NCBI GenBank assembly: GCA_016839805.1 | Contig: JAEOTO010000002.1 | Coordinates: forward strand, 1 to 37,986 | Length of the DNA stretch: 37,986 nt | DNA from: Candidatus Hermodarchaeota archaeon | Lineage (GTDB): Archaea; Asgardarchaeota; Hermodarchaeia; Hermodarchaeales; Hermodarchaeaceae | Direction: 5' to 3' | Part shown: one piece after another, positions 28,671 through 36,873 of the stretch | How positions within the stretch are numbered: position 1 is the first letter of the stretch | Layout: each line of letters opens with the position of its first letter | The notes under the pieces: model-generated | Databases searched by the model: none | What the model was told of the DNA's origin: nothing | The model's input: only the letters and a program-made list of their open reading frames with translations | Program-made: the position numbers and the translations under genes

Positions 28671-28876
28671 CTATTACTACTTGGTGGCGTGAAGAGCTTT
28701 TAACTTACTTACCGAGAAGTCCTCCATATTCCAGGGCGGTGTTGAATAAGCATTAGATCGACAGACTGAAAAATCATGAAAGGGTCATACATCTAGATAA
28801 CAGCTTTTTCATTTACAATAAAAAATTCTCTCCGAGTAAACTTCTTTCTATCTACAAAAAATAATTCCCCCTCTTT

Positions 28877-29075
28877 TCAGGTTTCTTTGTTTCTTTTAGA
28901 GAGGAAATATTTTCCAACAAGCGCAATTACAGGAATAGAAAAAAGTATACCCATGACGATAAAGAACGAAAGCGGGATTTGGGCGATGAAGGTTTTTTCG
29001 TTCAATGATTGCTTTAGCGATATTCTGTCCAAGAGTTCCAAATCCGATTTGAAGTACACGAAATGGCTTGAGCAT
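28877..29075 (-). pseudogene. Chimeric remnant: 5' end of a Rossmann-fold dehydrogenase joined out of frame to the 3' end of a membrane-protein gene
   Basis: ATG at 29075 reads MLKPFRVLQIGFGTLGQNIAKAIIERKNL (GxGxxG), then loses similarity and stops at 28896. A second frame gives FIAQIPLSFFIVMGILFSIPVIALVGKYFLSKRNKET* ending at 28877. Confidence 0.6.
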
Positions 29076-29144
29076 AATTTAAGCATTCAAAATCCATGTA
29101 ATAAAAGCTGTTCCATTGTAAGAATTACATAATGTGTAGTACTG

Positions 29145-30188
29145 TTAAAATCGACGTGGTTTTTTTGGATATGCCTGGAAGGGTGTTCGGGGTTCTAAAC
29201 TAAACCAGTCAGTCTTCTCGTCCAGGTGTGAGAGCGATCGCAAGATATCAAAAGTAATCCACCGCGATGCTTCTGGATATCGTTGGTATTCCCAGAGTCC
29301 ATATGGGCCTTGCAGATCTTTCACAAACTTCACGTTCTCTGCAATCCGGGGATCTTCTAAGCTTGCTTCGATACGCCACGATAAATCTAGGATTTGTGCC
29401 ACATCATAACGTTTGAAATAGGTAAAACCACCCCGTAGACGCTCTGTTCCAATAATCCGTGCAACTTCGAATCCAAGTGCATGCGCTTGTCGGTGTTCAT
29501 GCGCAAGTAGTTTATCTAATCCTCGACGAGCGGATTCACTCGTGCGTCGGCTTGGATGTAAGGCTAGCGCACTAACTGCAGCCGTTGTATTGGTTCGACA
29601 GCCAAATTTTGAATGCGCAAGTCGTCGATAACCTGCCGCAAAGATGTATTTATCCTGATGTCTCCCTGATGGCCACCCGCCCTCAGATAGCTCCTCCTTT
29701 AGAAGCCATTCATAGGCGGCTTCTGCTCGTTTATCGGTCGCATAACCTGCCCAAGCTAAGCCCAATAAAGGCAACGCAGTTTGAATAGGCATTGCATGAT
29801 ATTTCACATCATCTGCCCGTCCTCCGTCTAAAACTGCACCTTTCGCTATCAAGGGAAAGGAACCATCTGTTTGTTGTTTGGAAAAAATAAACTCGACACC
29901 GCTTTTGACAGCCGGATGATCTGGTCCCAATCCAAGAAAACCTAATGCCATCAGGGTTTGACTTGTGAGTCGAATTCGTCCCAAGATTGAAGAACCACTC
30001 TCTTCTCCTCGAAACGATCCATCTGAATCCTGTAAGGCTAGGAACTTTTTAACCAATGGATCATGTTCCTGAAGTGCTCGTAATTCTTTGACCTCCTCAT
30101 CGGTTTCTGGCCGATGTAAGAGATCTCGTAAAACGAGTAATCGTAAACTCGGTGAAGGGTCAGCTAACAAGAGAGGTGCCCAGGTCAT
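29145..30188 (-). CDS. Prenyltransferase/squalene-cyclase repeat (alpha/alpha toroid) protein of unknown function
   Basis: QW-like repeats LQDSDGSF, QQTDGSF, ELSEGGW, LQGPYGLW; no DxDD motif; ATGA overlap with the UvrA-like gene. Confidence 0.8.
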   Translation of the reverse strand: MTWAPLLLADPSPSLRLLVLRDLLHRPETDEEVKELRALQEHDPLVKKFLALQDSDGSFRGEESGSSILGRIRLTSQTLMALGFLGLGPDHPAVKSGVEFIFSKQQTDGSFPLIAKGAVLDGGRADDVKYHAMPIQTALPLLGLAWAGYATDKRAEAAYEWLLKEELSEGGWPSGRHQDKYIFAAGYRRLAHSKFGCRTNTTAAVSALALHPSRRTSESARRGLDKLLAHEHRQAHALGFEVARIIGTERLRGGFTYFKRYDVAQILDLSWRIEASLEDPRIAENVKFVKDLQGPYGLWEYQRYPEASRWITFDILRSLSHLDEKTDWFSLEPRTPFQAYPKKPRRF

Positions 30189-33100
30189 GTTTTCACCCCC
30201 ATGACTTTCCGGAGATAGGGAGCTGTTGGAGTATCGTGAGTAATTATTTTCTCTGGCGTTCCCGTGGCAATCACTTTACCCCCATCCGGTCCTCCAACAG
30301 GTCCAAGTTCTATAATCCAATCACAAGTCGCTAACAAGTGTGGATGATGTTCAACCACGACCACAGAGTGTCCGGCATCGACTAAACGGTGTAATACACT
30401 GGCTAATCGTGCAACATCTTCCATGTGGAGACCCACGGTGGGTTCATCCAGGATATACATGGTTTGTGTTGAAGTTCCTTTAATAAGCTCTTTTGCAATT
30501 TTTAACCGTTGAACTTCTCCGCCTGAAAGGGTATATGATCGTTGTCTCCAGACTAGGTATCCTAATCCCACTTGCTTTGCGATCCTCAGGGGCTCAGCAA
30601 TTCGTTTTTCCTCTTTGAAAAGTTCATAAACTTCGTCAAGAGTCATTCCATTGATTTCTGGTAATGTGACGTCCTTTACATGAATTTCCCACGCTTCGGG
30701 TTGATATCCTGTCCCCTTACAGGTTTCGCATTCTACAAATTCGTTGGGTAAAAATCCCATGTCGATTCGTAATATACCTCGTCCCTTGCATGCTGAACAG
30801 GGTCTGCTGAGATCCTTCTTAGTTACACCTAAGGTTTTCGCATCATCACTATCCGAAAAAATCTGAATTAATGGTTTTAGGAGACCCAGGAAACTAGCAG
30901 GACTTCGGATTCCTCGACGTGATTGATCGACAAGAAGGGTACGTTTTGGTTCGTTGGAGATCGAATCGTATTCACCAGCTTCCAGAGGCTCACGGGCAAA
31001 AGACGATGAATGGACCTGCTTGACAAGAGCTCGTCCAATAGTATCAATGAGTAGCGTACTTTTTCCAGACCCTGATACTCCACACACACCAGTTAAGGTT
31101 CCTAAGGGAATTCGTATTTTTTCACCGCGGAGATTATTTGCTCGAGCGCCTTTGACTACCATCCAGTCTTGAGATTTTCGACGTTGAGTTCTGGTCATCC
31201 ATTGGTGCAGTCCAGCTTTTCGTGGGAATTTTTTCTGTTGATCCGCTTGAAGCCATTTCCCAGTTATGGTTTGAGCTTTGATGATATCTGCTGGCTTTCC
31301 TTGGGCAATGAGTTTTCCCCCATTAATCCCGGCACCTGGTCCTAGATCGATTATATAATCTGCTGCCCGAATGATGAGTAAGTCATGTTCAACAACGACG
31401 ACCGTGTTGCCCTCATCTCGAAGTTCTTGTAGCGCTTGTAGGAGGGCTTCAAGTTCAGAGGGATGCATTCCTCGTGACGGCTCATCAACTAAAATCGTCA
31501 AAGATGTTAAACCACTTCCTAGTAGACTAGCTAATTGAATTCGTTGCGCCTCTCCAGCAGAAAGGGTTCCGGTTGGACGATTCAAATGAAGATACCCGAT
31601 TCCTACCTGTCTTAGGAATCGTAACCGTTTATGAATTATTTGAAGACTTGTTTCGATTAAGGGAATCTCAGTAGAGGGTAATGCTATCTTTTTGACGAGT
31701 TTTTCTAAGTCGATAAGGGGCATCTCACTTAATTCATTCATGTTCTTGCCCTGCAAAGTTACTGCTAAGAACTCCGGTCGCAGTCCAGCGCCCTGGCACT
31801 CAGGGCATTGAACTTGTTTCGTATAGGTGCCATGAATATCCCAATCGAAAATCCAACTATCCTCTCGGTAGAAGCCTCTCCATTTCCAAGTCGTTTGTCG
31901 TTCTTTTCCCTTCCACTTTCCCGCTGATTTACTAATATAGGTAAATTTGTAGGTTCTGTCATCCCCATAAAAGAACACATCTTTAGCCTTTTGTGACATT
32001 TTATTCCAGGGGGTTTTGAAAGGATCAAATCCATACTGTTTGCCAAGCTCAGAAATAATAGGTTGGTCTTTACAGAGATACGTTTTGGGCCAATAACCGG
32101 GAGACCACATAGCTCCAGCACATAGGGGTTTGTCAGGATTCACAATAAGCTTCTCCGGTTGAGGAAGATGCAACACCCCTAATCCATTACATTTCTCGCA
32201 TGAACTCGTCCAATGAGCTGGGGAGAAATGCTGAGGTTTAGCAAAGGGAGCTGTAACTTCACATTTAGGACAGATCCATTCTTCCCTTCGCTTCATTTTC
32301 GATCCACAATTCAAACAGTTACGTTTGCCGAGTGAAGCAAGTAGATTGGCTAAATGAAAACTAATCTCTGTCAGAGCACCTACAGTATTTCGACGTGTAA
32401 ACTGTGGAATGTGACTCCATAAATGCGCTCGATGAGTTGCTACTGTGAGAGTAACCCCCAAACCTGTAATTGAATCAACCGGAGCTTCTGCACTCTCCTT
32501 CACACCTTGTCGTTCATACATCGACAAGGTCTCTAAATACCGGCGTCGGGCCTCTGCCTGCAATGTGTCATTAACCAAACTCGATTTTCCTGAACCTGAC
32601 ACACCGGTTACAACAGTTAGTGCACCCTTCGGGATATCAACATCAATTCCTTGTAGATTATTTGCTTGAGTATTTCGAATCTTGATACTCGGAATCAATG
32701 GTTTTGTAGTGTGTTTCGGAGTTCTTTCAGGTTGAACTGCCAGTTCATCCTTTAATGCAGAACCAGTGACAGATGATTTTACTTCAAACAAGTTGTTAAG
32801 AGGACCCGCATACAGGACTTGGCCACCTGCGGGTCCTGCACCTGGTCCAAGGTCAATAATCCAATCAGCAGCTCGGATAAAGTCCGAGTTATGTTCAACT
32901 ACAACGATAGTAGCACCATGACGCACTAACCGATCAAGAACAGTAAGCAACCCATCCAGGTCCTTTGGATGCAAACCTGTTGAGGGTTCATCAAGAATAA
33001 TAAGCTGATTCGTTAGCTTGTTCCGACCCAAGAATTTAGTTAATTTCACACGTTGAGCCTCACCACCAGAAAGAGTAGGTGAGGGCTGACCCAGTTCCAA

Positions 33101-35119
33101 ATAACCTAAACCCACATCATTGAGAGCTTTCAGAATCCGCAAACCAGACTCTCGTTTTATTTCAGAAAGATGCTTCGACTTGTGAAATTGCTCCTCAATT
33201 TCAGCAATAGGTAGACTATAGAAATCAGCAATGGATAGGTTCTCTCCATCGAATTCAACTTGTGCAGATAATACTTCGTTATTAAATCGTTGTCCCTCAC
33301 AATCAGAACAAGGAATCCAAATGGACTGTAAATATCGCATTTTAACCTCGCTAGCCCCGATGCCTTTACACTTAGGACATGCACCTTCAGGTCGATTAAA
33401 AGAAAAATGCGACTTAGATAATCCTGTAGCTTCCGCATAAAGGTCACGGATTATCTCTGATAATTTCGTATACGTTGCTGGGTTGGAACGCGGATTACGA
33501 CCGATAGGGCTTTGATCCACCATGACCGGTTTGATACTTGGACCTTCAATATGCTCACACCCTATTGGCTCCTTCTTCCTTAAGGATGGTACCAAGACAT
33601 GCTCAACGAACGTGCTTTTTCCGGACCCAGAAACCCCGGTAATGACAGTTAATCGACCTAAAGGAATTTGAACATCAATATTTTGAAGATTATGTTGAAT
33701 CGCTTTTCTTACACTAAGAAATTTCTCGGGTGGGGAGCGAGGTTCAAGGGTCTTTACCCGATCTCGGAGACTGAAATACCGCCCTGTTGCGGTGTCAGCT
33801 TTCCATAATTTTGCTGGCGAACCCGAAAAGATGACTTCACCTCCCTCTTTGCCTGCACCTGGTCCTAGATCTACAGCGTAATCTGCAGAAGCAGCAGCAA
33901 CCCGGTCATGTTCAACAAAAATCACTGGACCTGATAGGTCTCGAAAAGCAGGGAGGAACCGTGAAACATCTACGGGATGTTGACCAATCGTTGGCTCATC
34001 AAGAACATGTAGAATGTCTTCTAATCGGCTGGATAATGAGATAGCAAGTCTTACTCTTTGAGACTCGCCCCGAGATAACGTGGGTGCCGACCTATTATGA
34101 GTAATATATCCGAGTCCCACTCGTTTGAGAGCATCAAGACGTCGTTGAATCTCTGAGCGTAACCGATTCGCTGTGGCAGGAAGATTCACATTCAAAAACA
34201 GCTCATGGGCTTCATCAACAGAAAGACAAAGCAGTTCAGGTAACCGCAATCCCTCCCATCGCACAGATGCAGCCTGCGGATGCATCCCCGTTGAATCACA
34301 GCGCTTACACCCTTTCCCTTTGCAAAAAGAACATATCTGATTGAAATGCGTAGGTTCTAAATCCCGGAACCCAGTTGCACAAACACTACAGATTTGTGTC
34401 GTTGTTAGAGTCACATCGAGGTTTTGACCTCGAGCTTGAATAGCTCCTGCACCTAGCGCTGTAGCCTGTCGTGTGAAATTTCTAACATCTTTTACAGAAG
34501 TTCTCTTATCAATTACACCTATCTCAACTTCAATCGAATGAGCCTGTAATGGATCAAGAGGGTTACCATCCCACTCACGACCATCAACGATAAGTGAACT
34601 CCGCTCAAACTCAGCATCTAAAATCCTAAGGAGCGTTCTATGGCTTCCTTTCACCTTCTGCACCAAAGGTGCAAATACTCGTACCAGTTTCTGTTTACTC
34701 AGAAGGTTTAGTTGCCCAACGATTTCGTCCTCAGTAAAAACGCTCAATGGTGTTCCACAATGTAAACAGTGGCGTACTCCAAAATTCGAATATAAGAGAC
34801 GAAAGAATGGATGTAATCCGGATGCTGTTGCAAGGGTGGATGCTGGATTTCGATTCAAAAGGTTTTGACCAACTGCAATGGTCGGGACCATTCCAGTGAT
34901 TACTTCAACATTCGATGGAGCAAGACGTTGCCCGCCACGACCATACGAAAAGACATCCAAAAAGCGTCTGTGAGCCTCATGATACAAGGTATCAAAAACA
35001 AGGGAGGTTTTCCCTGAACCAGAAACACCTGTGACAACGGTGAGGCCATCACCAAACTGTACATCGATATTTTTGAGGTTGTGTTCCTTTGCACCCTTGA
35101 CACGGATGTCCATGAGCAT
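30185..35119 (-). CDS. Internally duplicated UvrA-like protein with four ABC ATPase domains
   Basis: Four GVSGSGK Walker A motifs, four signatures (LSRGE, LSGGE, LSAGE, LSGGE), four DEP Walker B motifs, four VEH loops, three DLGPGAG motifs plus ELGPVGG, and multiple CxxC zinc modules. Confidence 0.93.
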   Translation of the reverse strand: MLMDIRVKGAKEHNLKNIDVQFGDGLTVVTGVSGSGKTSLVFDTLYHEAHRRFLDVFSYGRGGQRLAPSNVEVITGMVPTIAVGQNLLNRNPASTLATASGLHPFFRLLYSNFGVRHCLHCGTPLSVFTEDEIVGQLNLLSKQKLVRVFAPLVQKVKGSHRTLLRILDAEFERSSLIVDGREWDGNPLDPLQAHSIEVEIGVIDKRTSVKDVRNFTRQATALGAGAIQARGQNLDVTLTTTQICSVCATGFRDLEPTHFNQICSFCKGKGCKRCDSTGMHPQAASVRWEGLRLPELLCLSVDEAHELFLNVNLPATANRLRSEIQRRLDALKRVGLGYITHNRSAPTLSRGESQRVRLAISLSSRLEDILHVLDEPTIGQHPVDVSRFLPAFRDLSGPVIFVEHDRVAAASADYAVDLGPGAGKEGGEVIFSGSPAKLWKADTATGRYFSLRDRVKTLEPRSPPEKFLSVRKAIQHNLQNIDVQIPLGRLTVITGVSGSGKSTFVEHVLVPSLRKKEPIGCEHIEGPSIKPVMVDQSPIGRNPRSNPATYTKLSEIIRDLYAEATGLSKSHFSFNRPEGACPKCKGIGASEVKMRYLQSIWIPCSDCEGQRFNNEVLSAQVEFDGENLSIADFYSLPIAEIEEQFHKSKHLSEIKRESGLRILKALNDVGLGYLELGQPSPTLSGGEAQRVKLTKFLGRNKLTNQLIILDEPSTGLHPKDLDGLLTVLDRLVRHGATIVVVEHNSDFIRAADWIIDLGPGAGPAGGQVLYAGPLNNLFEVKSSVTGSALKDELAVQPERTPKHTTKPLIPSIKIRNTQANNLQGIDVDIPKGALTVVTGVSGSGKSSLVNDTLQAEARRRYLETLSMYERQGVKESAEAPVDSITGLGVTLTVATHRAHLWSHIPQFTRRNTVGALTEISFHLANLLASLGKRNCLNCGSKMKRREEWICPKCEVTAPFAKPQHFSPAHWTSSCEKCNGLGVLHLPQPEKLIVNPDKPLCAGAMWSPGYWPKTYLCKDQPIISELGKQYGFDPFKTPWNKMSQKAKDVFFYGDDRTYKFTYISKSAGKWKGKERQTTWKWRGFYREDSWIFDWDIHGTYTKQVQCPECQGAGLRPEFLAVTLQGKNMNELSEMPLIDLEKLVKKIALPSTEIPLIETSLQIIHKRLRFLRQVGIGYLHLNRPTGTLSAGEAQRIQLASLLGSGLTSLTILVDEPSRGMHPSELEALLQALQELRDEGNTVVVVEHDLLIIRAADYIIDLGPGAGINGGKLIAQGKPADIIKAQTITGKWLQADQQKKFPRKAGLHQWMTRTQRRKSQDWMVVKGARANNLRGEKIRIPLGTLTGVCGVSGSGKSTLLIDTIGRALVKQVHSSSFAREPLEAGEYDSISNEPKRTLLVDQSRRGIRSPASFLGLLKPLIQIFSDSDDAKTLGVTKKDLSRPCSACKGRGILRIDMGFLPNEFVECETCKGTGYQPEAWEIHVKDVTLPEINGMTLDEVYELFKEEKRIAEPLRIAKQVGLGYLVWRQRSYTLSGGEVQRLKIAKELIKGTSTQTMYILDEPTVGLHMEDVARLASVLHRLVDAGHSVVVVEHHPHLLATCDWIIELGPVGGPDGGKVIATGTPEKIITHDTPTAPYLRKVMGVKT

Positions 35120-35268
35120 CTTTCCTAGATAGTGTTGTGTGAACTATATATTTTTACAATGGCAAAAATGTCCCTTTGACCGTATAAAACCAAATAGAGA
35201 CTGCACTAAAAGTAATTGGCAAATCTAGGAAAAACCTAAACAACATGAAAAGCTAGAAAACAAACTAA

Positions 35269-35778
35269 GTGATACCCATGGATTTACCGGTCACCCCTGA
35301 AAGTAAGAAACTGCTGCTAATGGGCAGTAAGGCATTCGAAAACCGGCAATTACCGGTTGAGGTGACGCAGCGTATCGATAGTGCAATGGATAAGGGAATG
35401 ATCATCATTGTGGGGGAAGCGCATGGAACCCCGCGCCTTTACCAAGATTATCTACACGCAAAAGGGTATGAAAACGTAATTGTGGGCCATGCAAAAAGCC
35501 TGCGATATAACGCAGGTAACTGGACTGCCATCCAGTACGGTCAAGATCTCAAGGAACGCGAACGTAATATGATTGAAGATTGCGATGAAGCCATCGTAAT
35601 TTGGATGAATAAAAGCGGGGTAATTGCCCAGAATCTAGAGCAGCTAAAGCGATTGGGGAAACCAACGTTTCTTTATGAGTGTTATAGCCACACACATGAA
35701 GTAAATGCTGGGCCTCTAGATCCCACGCGCATCTACGATCAGTATTTTGACTGGAAACTTCGAAAGAAAAAACCTTAA
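35269..35778 (+). CDS. SLOG-superfamily (YspA/DUF2493-like) Rossmannoid protein
   Basis: LLLMGSK...IIVGEAHG...QDYL...RYNAGNW...RERNMIEDCDEAIVIW..KSG...LKRLGKP follows the SLOG pattern as recalled; start may be the ATG at 35278. Confidence 0.65.
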   Translation: MIPMDLPVTPESKKLLLMGSKAFENRQLPVEVTQRIDSAMDKGMIIIVGEAHGTPRLYQDYLHAKGYENVIVGHAKSLRYNAGNWTAIQYGQDLKERERNMIEDCDEAIVIWMNKSGVIAQNLEQLKRLGKPTFLYECYSHTHEVNAGPLDPTRIYDQYFDWKLRKKKP

Positions 35779-35902
35779 TCATCAAGGAACTGAATTCACA
35801 CTACCTCATCGTTAAGGGAAACTTAACCTAGACCTTACTAAAGCCATTCTGGAGTTACGGTTTAAATAGCAACATGGCAACGTCGCTTTTGGGGATATCA
35901 CT

Positions 35903-36349
35903 ATGTCTGAACATCTCTACATTCCAGTAGACCAACTAAATCCTGGTTTCCAGCAACTCATTCCTGGTGGAGCAAACATTCTGTACACAACCCGCGCTGA
36001 AGTTCTTAAACGGGGCTTTGGTGCCCATAAGAAAAGTGGCTTTGTCGTGGTCACTGATAAGGGAATTGCTTTTCACGCAGCCAAAACGGGGCTCTTTGAC
36101 GTTAGCTTAGTTTCAATGGCCTCTGGTGCTCTCGCAGGATTTATTCCCTGGGCAAATATCCAAAAACTGGGAAACTACAAAGACAAGATTCAAGTTAAAC
36201 ACACACTCACTGATAATCCGAAGAAGAAACTTGAATGGTTCTTCAAATGTGAACGATGCAAAGACCAGGGTGAAGAGAAAAAGGAGTTCGAAGCACGCAA
36301 AAAAGGCTTTGGACCCTTCGTTGAAACTCTCTACAAACAGAACAAGTAA
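35903..36349 (+). CDS. Hypothetical protein, possible PH-like fold
   Basis: GFVVVTDKGIAF...FIPWANIQKL resembles bPH/GRAM patterns; followed by a terminator. Confidence 0.7.
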   Translation: MSEHLYIPVDQLNPGFQQLIPGGANILYTTRAEVLKRGFGAHKKSGFVVVTDKGIAFHAAKTGLFDVSLVSMASGALAGFIPWANIQKLGNYKDKIQVKHTLTDNPKKKLEWFFKCERCKDQGEEKKEFEARKKGFGPFVETLYKQNK

Positions 36350-36365
36350 TTGCTCCGAATCGCGC

Positions 36366-36409
36366 TAGAGGACTAGAAGAACACCTTCTAGCCTCTAATT
36401 TTTGTTTTT
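36366..36409 (+). terminator. Hairpin plus T-rich tract between convergent genes
   Basis: TAGAGG-A-CTAGAAG / AACAC / CTTCTAG-CCTCTA followed by ATTTTTGTTTTT. Confidence 0.7.
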
Positions 36410-36420
36410 AGATACGATAC

Positions 36421-36873
36421 TTAATCGAGTTTCTTGGGCTTACGTTTGATAGCGATGAGTCTTTTCAGATCCTCAAAAAGAGATGCGTCAGGAATGCGTA
36501 TCCATAACCATTTACCATCATGTAATTTCGGTGTGTTTCGGAATATATCTACGATAGAGGGTAAAAAATCAGCTGCTTGAGCAGCAAATTTCTCAATCTC
36601 TTTTTTACCATAGACAATGAGAAAGCTAAAACTTTGCTTTTCAGGGAAAAGGGACACGATAGTACGACCACTTTTACGATATCGAACAAGCCACCCATAT
36701 TTATCGCCATAATAGAGAATTTCTTTTGACAAGTCATAGTGGATTTCTAGGTATTCTTGAATTTGCTTCCACGCTGTAATGGCATCCGCATCAGAGATGA
36801 ATGTGAAGATGTCAGTTTCTGTGGGTTCTCGGGTCCGATCAAACATTCTTTGATGAGTCTCTTGTTCCGTCAT
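36421..36873 (-). CDS. DUF3788-family protein
   Basis: KYGWLVRYRKSGRTIVSLFPE...IVYGKKE...HDGKWLWIRI...DLKRLIAIKRKP. Confidence 0.8.
   Translation of the reverse strand: MTEQETHQRMFDRTREPTETDIFTFISDADAITAWKQIQEYLEIHYDLSKEILYYGDKYGWLVRYRKSGRTIVSLFPEKQSFSFLIVYGKKEIEKFAAQAADFLPSIVDIFRNTPKLHDGKWLWIRIPDASLFEDLKRLIAIKRKPKKLD

Follow-up and report, generated by a model that had tools for sequence, protein, structure and literature searches.

The two genes described here occupy positions 29145-35119 on the minus strand of a window of 37,986 nucleotides (nt), i.e. the whole stretch of DNA that was analyzed, from contig JAEOTO010000002.1 (assembly GCA_016839805.1) of Candidatus Hermodarchaeota archaeon. 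The first gene (30185-35119) encodes a double UvrA of 1644 amino acids (aa) with four ATP-binding cassette (ABC) ATPase sites and six Zn modules. The second (29145-30188) encodes a 347-aa protein that, judging from its open reading frame (ORF), Pfam matches, homologs and an AlphaFold2 model, is built of a single (alpha/alpha)6 barrel. According to our analysis these two genes are inherited, and have moved between domains of life, as one unit, and we class the pair as a UvrA paralog system whose architecture and obligate partner are both new. We propose, with a probability that we put at about one half, that they form an obligate, equimolar and self-contained machine, which guards DNA without UvrB or UvrC. 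No published account of such a double-UvrA/barrel pair was found in the literature on the UvrA classes, on fused or double UvrA proteins and on UvrA-like defence, in agreement with the preliminary description of this locus, made from the sequence of the window alone, which had regarded the pairing as undescribed.

Conservation and coupling of the two genes

A pattern search for the partner over 185,579 species genomes, with adjacency checked by tblastn and ORF maps, returned 35 loci from Hermodarchaeota, Odinarchaeota, Promethearchaeota, Bathyarchaeota, Chloroflexota, Desulfobacterales and Acidobacteriota. In 33 of them the double-UvrA stretch ends at the start of the partner gene; the other two have no readable upstream DNA, since a scaffold gap abuts the partner gene in L042 and the contig begins inside it in L047. 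Scaffold gaps of 100 N cut five of the 35 loci, truncating the UvrA in L030, L033, L036 and L039 and hiding it entirely in L042. The UvrA of L045 is split without any N, which is probably explained by a frameshift in long reads or by a pseudogene.

A second, more distant clade was found in metagenomes by a pattern search built on seven distant sequences. In this clade the partner is 45-57% and the ATPase 50-66% identical, and the double UvrA lies upstream of the partner at all loci with at least 300 nt of upstream DNA except L054 (1205-4549). The latter contains the sole barrel gene without an upstream double UvrA; a gene for a 727-aa molybdopterin oxidoreductase lies upstream of it on the opposite strand, and the contig ends 55 nt past the barrel gene. 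The pair is thus present in about 100 loci from Asgard archaea, Bathyarchaeia, Chloroflexota, Acidobacteriota and unassigned metagenome contigs, and most of the junctions display a 4-nt [AGT]TGA overlap, usually with GGAGG upstream. In the window, the coupling junction (30185-30200) consists of GGGGGTGA (30200-30193), located 5 nt upstream of the partner ATG as read from the sequence, followed by the ATGA stop/start overlap (30188-30185), which the preliminary description had placed, together with both ORFs, exactly to the nucleotide.

The evolutionary histories of the two proteins match as well. The pairwise distances of the ATPase and of the partner correlate with r = 0.957, and both trees recover the same clades, with the Asgard sequences (11 rows) as sisters to those from Chloroflexota (4 rows), and with Acidobacteria and the metagenome clade outside the Asgard, Chloroflexota and Bathyarchaeota groups. 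The Bathyarchaeota group (five rows, including a contig labelled Desulfobacterales) is clear in the ATPase tree only and is not resolved in the partner tree. That contig (L031) is placed next to the Bathyarchaeota rows in both trees, with a very short branch, and L016, labelled Odinarchaeota, likewise pairs tightly with Hermodarchaeum yapensis in both; these placements indicate either recent transfers or mis-binned or mislabelled contigs.

The recurrence of the pair in about 100 independent loci places the association far beyond chance. One could consider that the adjacency is functionally meaningless and that the two proteins perform unrelated jobs, for which the barrel gene of L054 could be cited; however, this alternative is effectively refuted by the comparative data, in which about 100 loci from distant lineages share the gene order, the conserved 4-nt overlap and congruent trees, amid otherwise unrelated flanks. 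No third conserved gene was found beside the pair at the loci examined, apart from Asgard-specific synteny. In one metagenome subclade (L050:6500-8500, L053, L059, L088, L089 and L121), a 650-aa gene of the S9 prolyl-oligopeptidase type with a beta-propeller starts a few bases past the barrel gene on the same strand.

Architecture of the two proteins

The 1644-aa protein scores as UvrA twice over, with both TIGR00630 and NF001503. Its best single TIGR00630 stretches reach 562.5 and 503.9 bits, both below the cut-off of 729.8, and the fused protein as a whole reaches 1395 bits, while the canonical UvrA of the same genome scores 1369.9 bits. We aligned both halves to this canonical UvrA and derived conservation from 41 full-length homologs, in which the Walker A, signature, Walker B and H-loop motifs (four of each), as well as the twelve CxxC pairs (six per half) that make up the six zinc modules, are fully or almost fully invariant.

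The N half (aa 1 to ~810; 32690-35119; TIGR00630 stretches 2-284 and 399-918) has kept a UvrB-binding-type domain, and its insertion domain is cleanly deleted (CSFCKGKGCKRC). Zn module 1 together with the UvrB-binding-type domain spans aa 118-247 (34379-34768), between the pairs CLHC (118-121) and CSVC (244-247); this region aligns to the canonical UvrB-binding domain, although it reaches only 20.4 bits with PF17760, below the cut-off of 23.3, and it is kept by the N half in all 41 full-length homologs. Conversely, the alignment and the profile stretches reveal that in the C half (aa ~811-1644; 30185-32689) the UvrB-binding domain is deleted, leaving CLNC and CPKC separated by 11 aa, and the insertion domain is retained. 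Zn module 2 with this insertion (DNA-binding) domain extends over aa 974-1108 (31796-32200), with conserved motifs and a PF17755 score of 29.2 bits, above the cut-off of 23.2. The halves are therefore complementary, each having lost the accessory domain that the other keeps. They share about 35% identity with one another and 33-39% with canonical UvrA, which argues that the fusion is old.

The most variable stretches of the protein are two linkers, namely the 17-aa linker between the halves (aa 796-812; 32690-32740; 25% identity) and one inside the C half (aa 1286-1325; 31160-31265; 37% identity). The first Q-loop region of the C half (VATHRAH) and the segment after the second (VDQSRRGIRSPASF) have diverged, while the N half keeps the canonical sequences, so that the four ATP sites may not be equivalent. 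The canonical UvrA dimer contains two copies of each accessory domain (domain definitions according to PMC3167621). The present chain would instead fold as an intramolecular pseudo-dimer with one copy of each accessory domain, asymmetric by build.

Comparison with known UvrA proteins underlines the unusual character of this arrangement. The UvrA homologs are said to have been divided into classes by Marszalkowska in 2013. Class I UvrA (TIGR00630/NF001503; 2r6f, 3pih, 3zqj and 9gxk in the PDB) shares the build of each half, i.e. two ABC domains, a stem bearing Zn modules 1 and 2, and a Zn finger at the C terminus. However, a class I protein is a single unit with both accessory domains (PMC3167621) that works with UvrB and UvrC, whereas here two units, each without one of these domains and as distant from one another as from canonical UvrA, are joined in a single chain that is always paired with a barrel protein and is present in genomes where uvrB was not found. 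Class II/IIa proteins (DrrC, Ecm16 (7sh1) and the Deinococcus UvrA2 (2vf7)) lack the UvrB-binding domain, as does the C half here, and Ecm16 can be aligned over its full length with the N half. They are, however, single units (about 800 aa) that assemble into homodimers, function without a partner and are often encoded in antibiotic gene clusters, unlike the fused hetero-pair described here, with a UvrB-binding-type domain in one half, an obligatory partner and no biosynthetic context. The chlamydial-type UvrA (NF001885, PRK00635; a model of 1809 positions) is likewise of about double length, but the present protein scores 898.8 bits with that model against a cut-off of 3054, and the long chlamydial protein is annotated as the excinuclease subunit A of its organism. 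To our knowledge, it has no barrel partner.

The partner matches SQHop_cyclase_C (PF13243) with an E-value of 2.7e-10 and 40.2 bits, above the cut-off of 26.1. As stated in the preliminary description, it contains QxxDGxF/W-type repeats (at positions 53, 105 and 166), and a DxDD motif is absent from its 347 aa (pattern D.DD). The AlphaFold2 model, obtained from a diverse alignment, is a single (alpha/alpha)6 barrel with a predicted local distance difference test score (pLDDT) of 88.8 and a predicted template modeling score of 0.89; a model from a shallow alignment (pLDDT 59.5) was set aside. The closest structural matches are the thioester domain (TED) of complement C5 (Z 15.5), drimenyl diphosphate synthase (Z 14.6) and single-barrel cyclase-like proteins (Z 14.2), and numerous unrelated barrels follow at Z 11-14. 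The predicted fold is thus clear, but it does not give the function.

Class II terpene cyclases and their single-barrel relatives (squalene-hopene cyclase (SHC; PF13243), drimenyl diphosphate synthase (8zg0), MstE (6sbb), 8paj and 6ij1) share with the partner the (alpha/alpha)6 barrel with QW-like Q..DG.W repeats; the sequence match to SHC is 1e-11, the structural Z-scores for the cyclase group are 12-15 and the hhalign probability is 97%. Unlike these enzymes, the partner comprises one barrel without DxDD and carries a hallmark, AGYRR..HS.FGCR.NTT, that the cyclases lack. The scores with the cyclase families TIGR01507, TIGR01787 and TIGR03463 are 20.4, 21.5 and 23.3 bits (cut-offs 431, 323 and 851, respectively); together with the missing DxDD, these values led us to reject the assignment as a class II terpene cyclase. 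The score with PF00432 (protein prenyltransferase beta subunit) is 17.3 bits, below the gathering score of 26.5. The TEDs of complement C3/C4/C5 and alpha-2-macroglobulins provide the best structural match (for C5, a root mean square deviation of 4.5 Å over 245 residues), but with 14-17% identity, and the partner is rejected as a TED too, as CGEQ is missing and its sole cysteine, in GCRTN, is followed by R-T-N and occupies another place in the fold.

The hallmark of the family, AGYRRLAHSKFGCRTNTT in this protein (aa 185-202; 29583-29636), forms according to alignments and predicted secondary structure a loop or hairpin rich in Arg that runs into helix 198-209, and its consensus across the family is AGYR[RK]L.HS.[FW]GCR[ST]NTT. 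It holds Cys197, the only cysteine of the partner, which is nearly invariant in the family. A zinc site in the barrel was rejected, because Cys197 is the sole cysteine conserved in distant members. We also discarded the GCR motif as a counterpart of the cyclase DxDD: the HMMER alignment that would equate them is weak (7 bits, i-Evalue 26), and hhalign makes the motif an extra segment, inserted with respect to a squalene-cyclase-like protein. Conservation extends to the basic tail at the C terminus, EP.TPFQ.YPK..RR[FY] (aa 331-347; 29148-29198), which is modelled with low confidence. The family is narrow, with 331 representatives at E < 0.001 among 1.84 billion proteins, and the closest relatives of the partner, like those of the ATPase, come from Hermodarchaeota and Promethearchaeota assemblies. 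In public records the two proteins appear as "hypothetical", "ATP-binding cassette domain-containing", "excinuclease ABC subunit A" or "prenyltransferase/squalene oxidase repeat-containing".

Genomic context and independence of UvrB

The assembly that contains the window (2.3 Mb in 50 contigs, 86.7% complete) possesses a canonical uvrB-uvrA-uvrC cluster, arranged head to tail on the minus strand of another contig (C15:32789-39719). Its products score 991.7, 1369.9 and 550.9 bits, respectively, all above the family cut-offs, hence the double UvrA is an extra paralog and not the excision-repair sensor of the cell. The preliminary description had noted that uvrB and uvrC are absent from the window; neither gene is indeed present there, and both are found in the C15 cluster.

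The independence of the module from UvrB is supported by genome content. In all 13 Bathyarchaeia genomes with the partner (four chromosome-level and nine newly found; one of the 13 partner homologs is a distant one with 30% identity and one is partial) uvrB was not found, and neither uvrC nor canonical uvrA was found in the four chromosome-level Bathyarchaeota assemblies with the pair. The assemblies had been filtered at a completeness of at least 80%, thus a joint loss of these genes through incompleteness is not credible. Five of these Bathyarchaeia genomes show a UvrA-like stretch beside the partner, which is full length in G100, G124 and G148 and truncated in G079 and G145. In G148, which has the pair and in which uvrB was not found, a separate single-unit UvrA without the UvrB-binding domain (C109:13782-15968; profile positions 2-117 and 264-924) resembles a class II-type paralog. 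The dedicated two-gene module proposed in the preliminary description has thus gained support from three sides: the adjacency is conserved in two domains of life, with L054 as the one exception among about 100 loci; the double UvrA is not the only UvrA of its genome; and the module persists in 13 Bathyarchaeia in which uvrB was not found. The mechanisms offered in that description, in which the ATPase would strip a ligand for the toroid to sequester, or the toroid would take the place of UvrB, are candidates only.

These data also bear on the possibility that the pair acts as an auxiliary damage sensor, which would hand special lesions over to nucleases encoded elsewhere (UvrB/UvrC, or archaeal proteins of the XPF/XPB/XPD type), with the barrel as an adaptor or lesion reader, in analogy to the alkyltransferase-like proteins that feed UvrA. 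The universal retention of the UvrB-binding-type domain in the N half is compatible with such a role, as are the lack of a nuclease in the module and the full uvrABC sets both in the genome of the window and in a Chloroflexota genome with the pair. However, the module is intact, UvrB-binding-type domain included, in the Bathyarchaeia genomes without detected uvrB, at none of the loci examined is it linked to uvrB or uvrC, and the UvrB-binding-type domain evolves fast. We therefore regard this explanation as clearly unlikely.

The distribution of the partner combines near-universal presence in one Asgard family with patchiness elsewhere. It occurs in 29 of 151 genomes of the phylum of the window, with conserved synteny in the family (15 of 18 genomes) and the genus (12 of 14), and in 10 of 151 sampled Bathyarchaeia genomes. 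Patchy occurrence and transfer between archaea and bacteria could be features of a defence system against phages or mobile DNA, in which the UvrA-like sensor detects foreign (e.g. hypermodified) DNA and the barrel serves as the effector; in addition, ABC ATPases are common as defence sensors, and the ATPase does give matches in PADLOC-DB 2.0. These matches are, however, only of the generic multi-stretch ABC kind (e.g. mad3 in 8 stretches), the barrel has none, and the pair contains no nuclease or toxin domain. Moreover, viral contigs, phages and plasmids gave no match, the pair is core-like, syntenic and slowly evolving in its host family, and its neighbors in the window form no defence island but are metabolic (a class III aminotransferase, an M20 peptidase, a DUF3788 protein and a BtrH_N-like protein). 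Taken together, this makes a defence function highly improbable.

As regards the remaining DNA around the pair, a TATA-like element, AAAAATATATA (35145-35155, minus strand), read from the sequence 25 nt upstream of the ATG of the double uvrA, is a candidate archaeal promoter. Three small genes lie further upstream (35269-36873), encoding proteins of 169 and 148 aa, both without Pfam matches, and the 150-aa DUF3788 protein; this trio is syntenic with the pair in 9-11 Asgard loci and does not accompany it in other phyla. On the other side, an AT-rich gap of 474 nt (28671-29144) separates the barrel gene from the aminotransferase gene. Its sole ORF (28887-29132, plus strand, 81 aa, TTG start) appears to be spurious, and a simple scan of the gap found no terminator-like hairpin.

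Possible function of the pair

How could such a machine operate? The UvrA machinery is intact, including both C-terminal zinc fingers and one insertion domain, which argues for ATP-driven testing of duplex DNA, and the strict coupling and co-inheritance of the two genes argue for an equimolar complex with the barrel. We envisage that the ATPase acts as a single-chain UvrA pseudo-dimer, whose two units, joined by the variable 17-aa linker, have all four ATP sites and six zinc modules intact, with the single UvrB-binding-type domain on one side and the single insertion domain on the other. By analogy with UvrA, binding and hydrolysis of ATP would clamp duplex DNA and test it for distortion. The barrel protein, a dedicated partner as suggested by coupled translation and strict joint inheritance, would be recruited to the flagged site or switched on there, and its Arg-rich loop, near-invariant cysteine and basic tail could bind or chemically process the offending group.

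The same components could serve another purpose. DrrC and Ecm16, which the preliminary description had cited as UvrA-like proteins protecting DNA outside canonical nucleotide excision repair, confer resistance without UvrA, UvrB, UvrC or UvrD in a manner that requires ATPase activity, as described for class IIa UvrA (PMC9328131). With this precedent in mind, the double UvrA could use ATP to dislodge an intercalator or another DNA-binding natural product, and the hydrophobic cavity of the barrel, of the terpene-cyclase type, could capture or modify the released compound and prevent its rebinding. Such drug protection would be in line with the apparent independence of the module from UvrB, with a fold that usually binds small hydrophobic or sugar ligands, and with the patchy distribution across domains of life. 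Nonetheless, we consider it unlikely: neither a conserved biosynthetic cluster nor a transporter was found beside the pair at the loci examined, a gene that is near-universal and syntenic in one Asgard family is unlike a niche resistance gene, Ecm16 and likewise DrrC need no partner, and the barrel has a hallmark that is basic and rich in Arg, not hydrophobic.

Several observations weigh against the self-contained DNA-guarding machine that we favor. First, the physical contact of the two proteins is something that we infer, and the only fused form is P0400, a 741-aa singleton with an ABC domain and the barrel on a 2.8-kb contig. This protein, as well as P0245 (a 378-aa singleton with a fragment of the insertion domain and the barrel, on a 1.9-kb contig), is probably an assembly or frameshift artefact and not a natural fusion. 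Second, the UvrB-binding-type domain is the least conserved structured domain, with 46% identity and 3% invariant positions, compared to about 60-80% identity in the others. In an exploratory analysis of domain-wise co-variation with the partner, for which the pairs are non-independent and shared ancestry is included, it shows, after control for the rest of the protein, a partial r of -0.09, and values of 0.40-0.53 are reached by the C-half block of the nucleotide-binding domain I, insertion domain and signature I. Conservation and co-variation thus indirectly disfavor docking of the partner on the retained UvrB-binding-type domain, which would be the obvious candidate. Third, a nuclease and a helicase are missing from the module, therefore excision cannot be completed by the module alone. 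Fourth, no DNA-acting protein appears among the structural matches to the model of the partner, and (alpha/alpha)6 barrels are known as enzymes acting on, or binders of, small molecules, sugars or peptides. Finally, the patchy distribution outside one Asgard family would fit an accessory resistance or defence trait too.

It is tempting to go one step further and to envisage a DNA-maintenance pathway of archaea from anoxic sediments (including Asgard archaea and the Bathyarchaeia without UvrB and UvrC) and of bacteria, in which the asymmetric UvrA pseudo-dimer finds the lesion and a protein with the terpene-cyclase fold acts as a DNA-directed effector, e.g. with its cysteine and Arg-rich loop removing or accepting the adduct directly, with no excision. 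We offer this extension as a tentative possibility.

UvrA is among the best-studied sensors of DNA damage, and its known partners are UvrB, Mfd and the alkyltransferase-like proteins. If the machine proposed here is real, an obligate partner with the terpene-cyclase fold, in genomes where UvrB and UvrC were not found, would represent a new use of the UvrA engine. The lopsided fused pseudo-dimer, in which four conserved ATP sites accompany a single UvrB-binding-type domain and a single insertion domain, would in that case be a natural experiment, and it could help to explain the need of UvrA for duplicate accessory domains and the division of labor among the four ATP sites. As a compact, self-contained unit of 6 kb, the pair should be easy to test in E. 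coli. For many archaea, we know of no damage-recognition factor for bulky lesions, and a sensor of the UvrA type that works by itself in Bathyarchaeia and Asgard archaea would bear on this gap.

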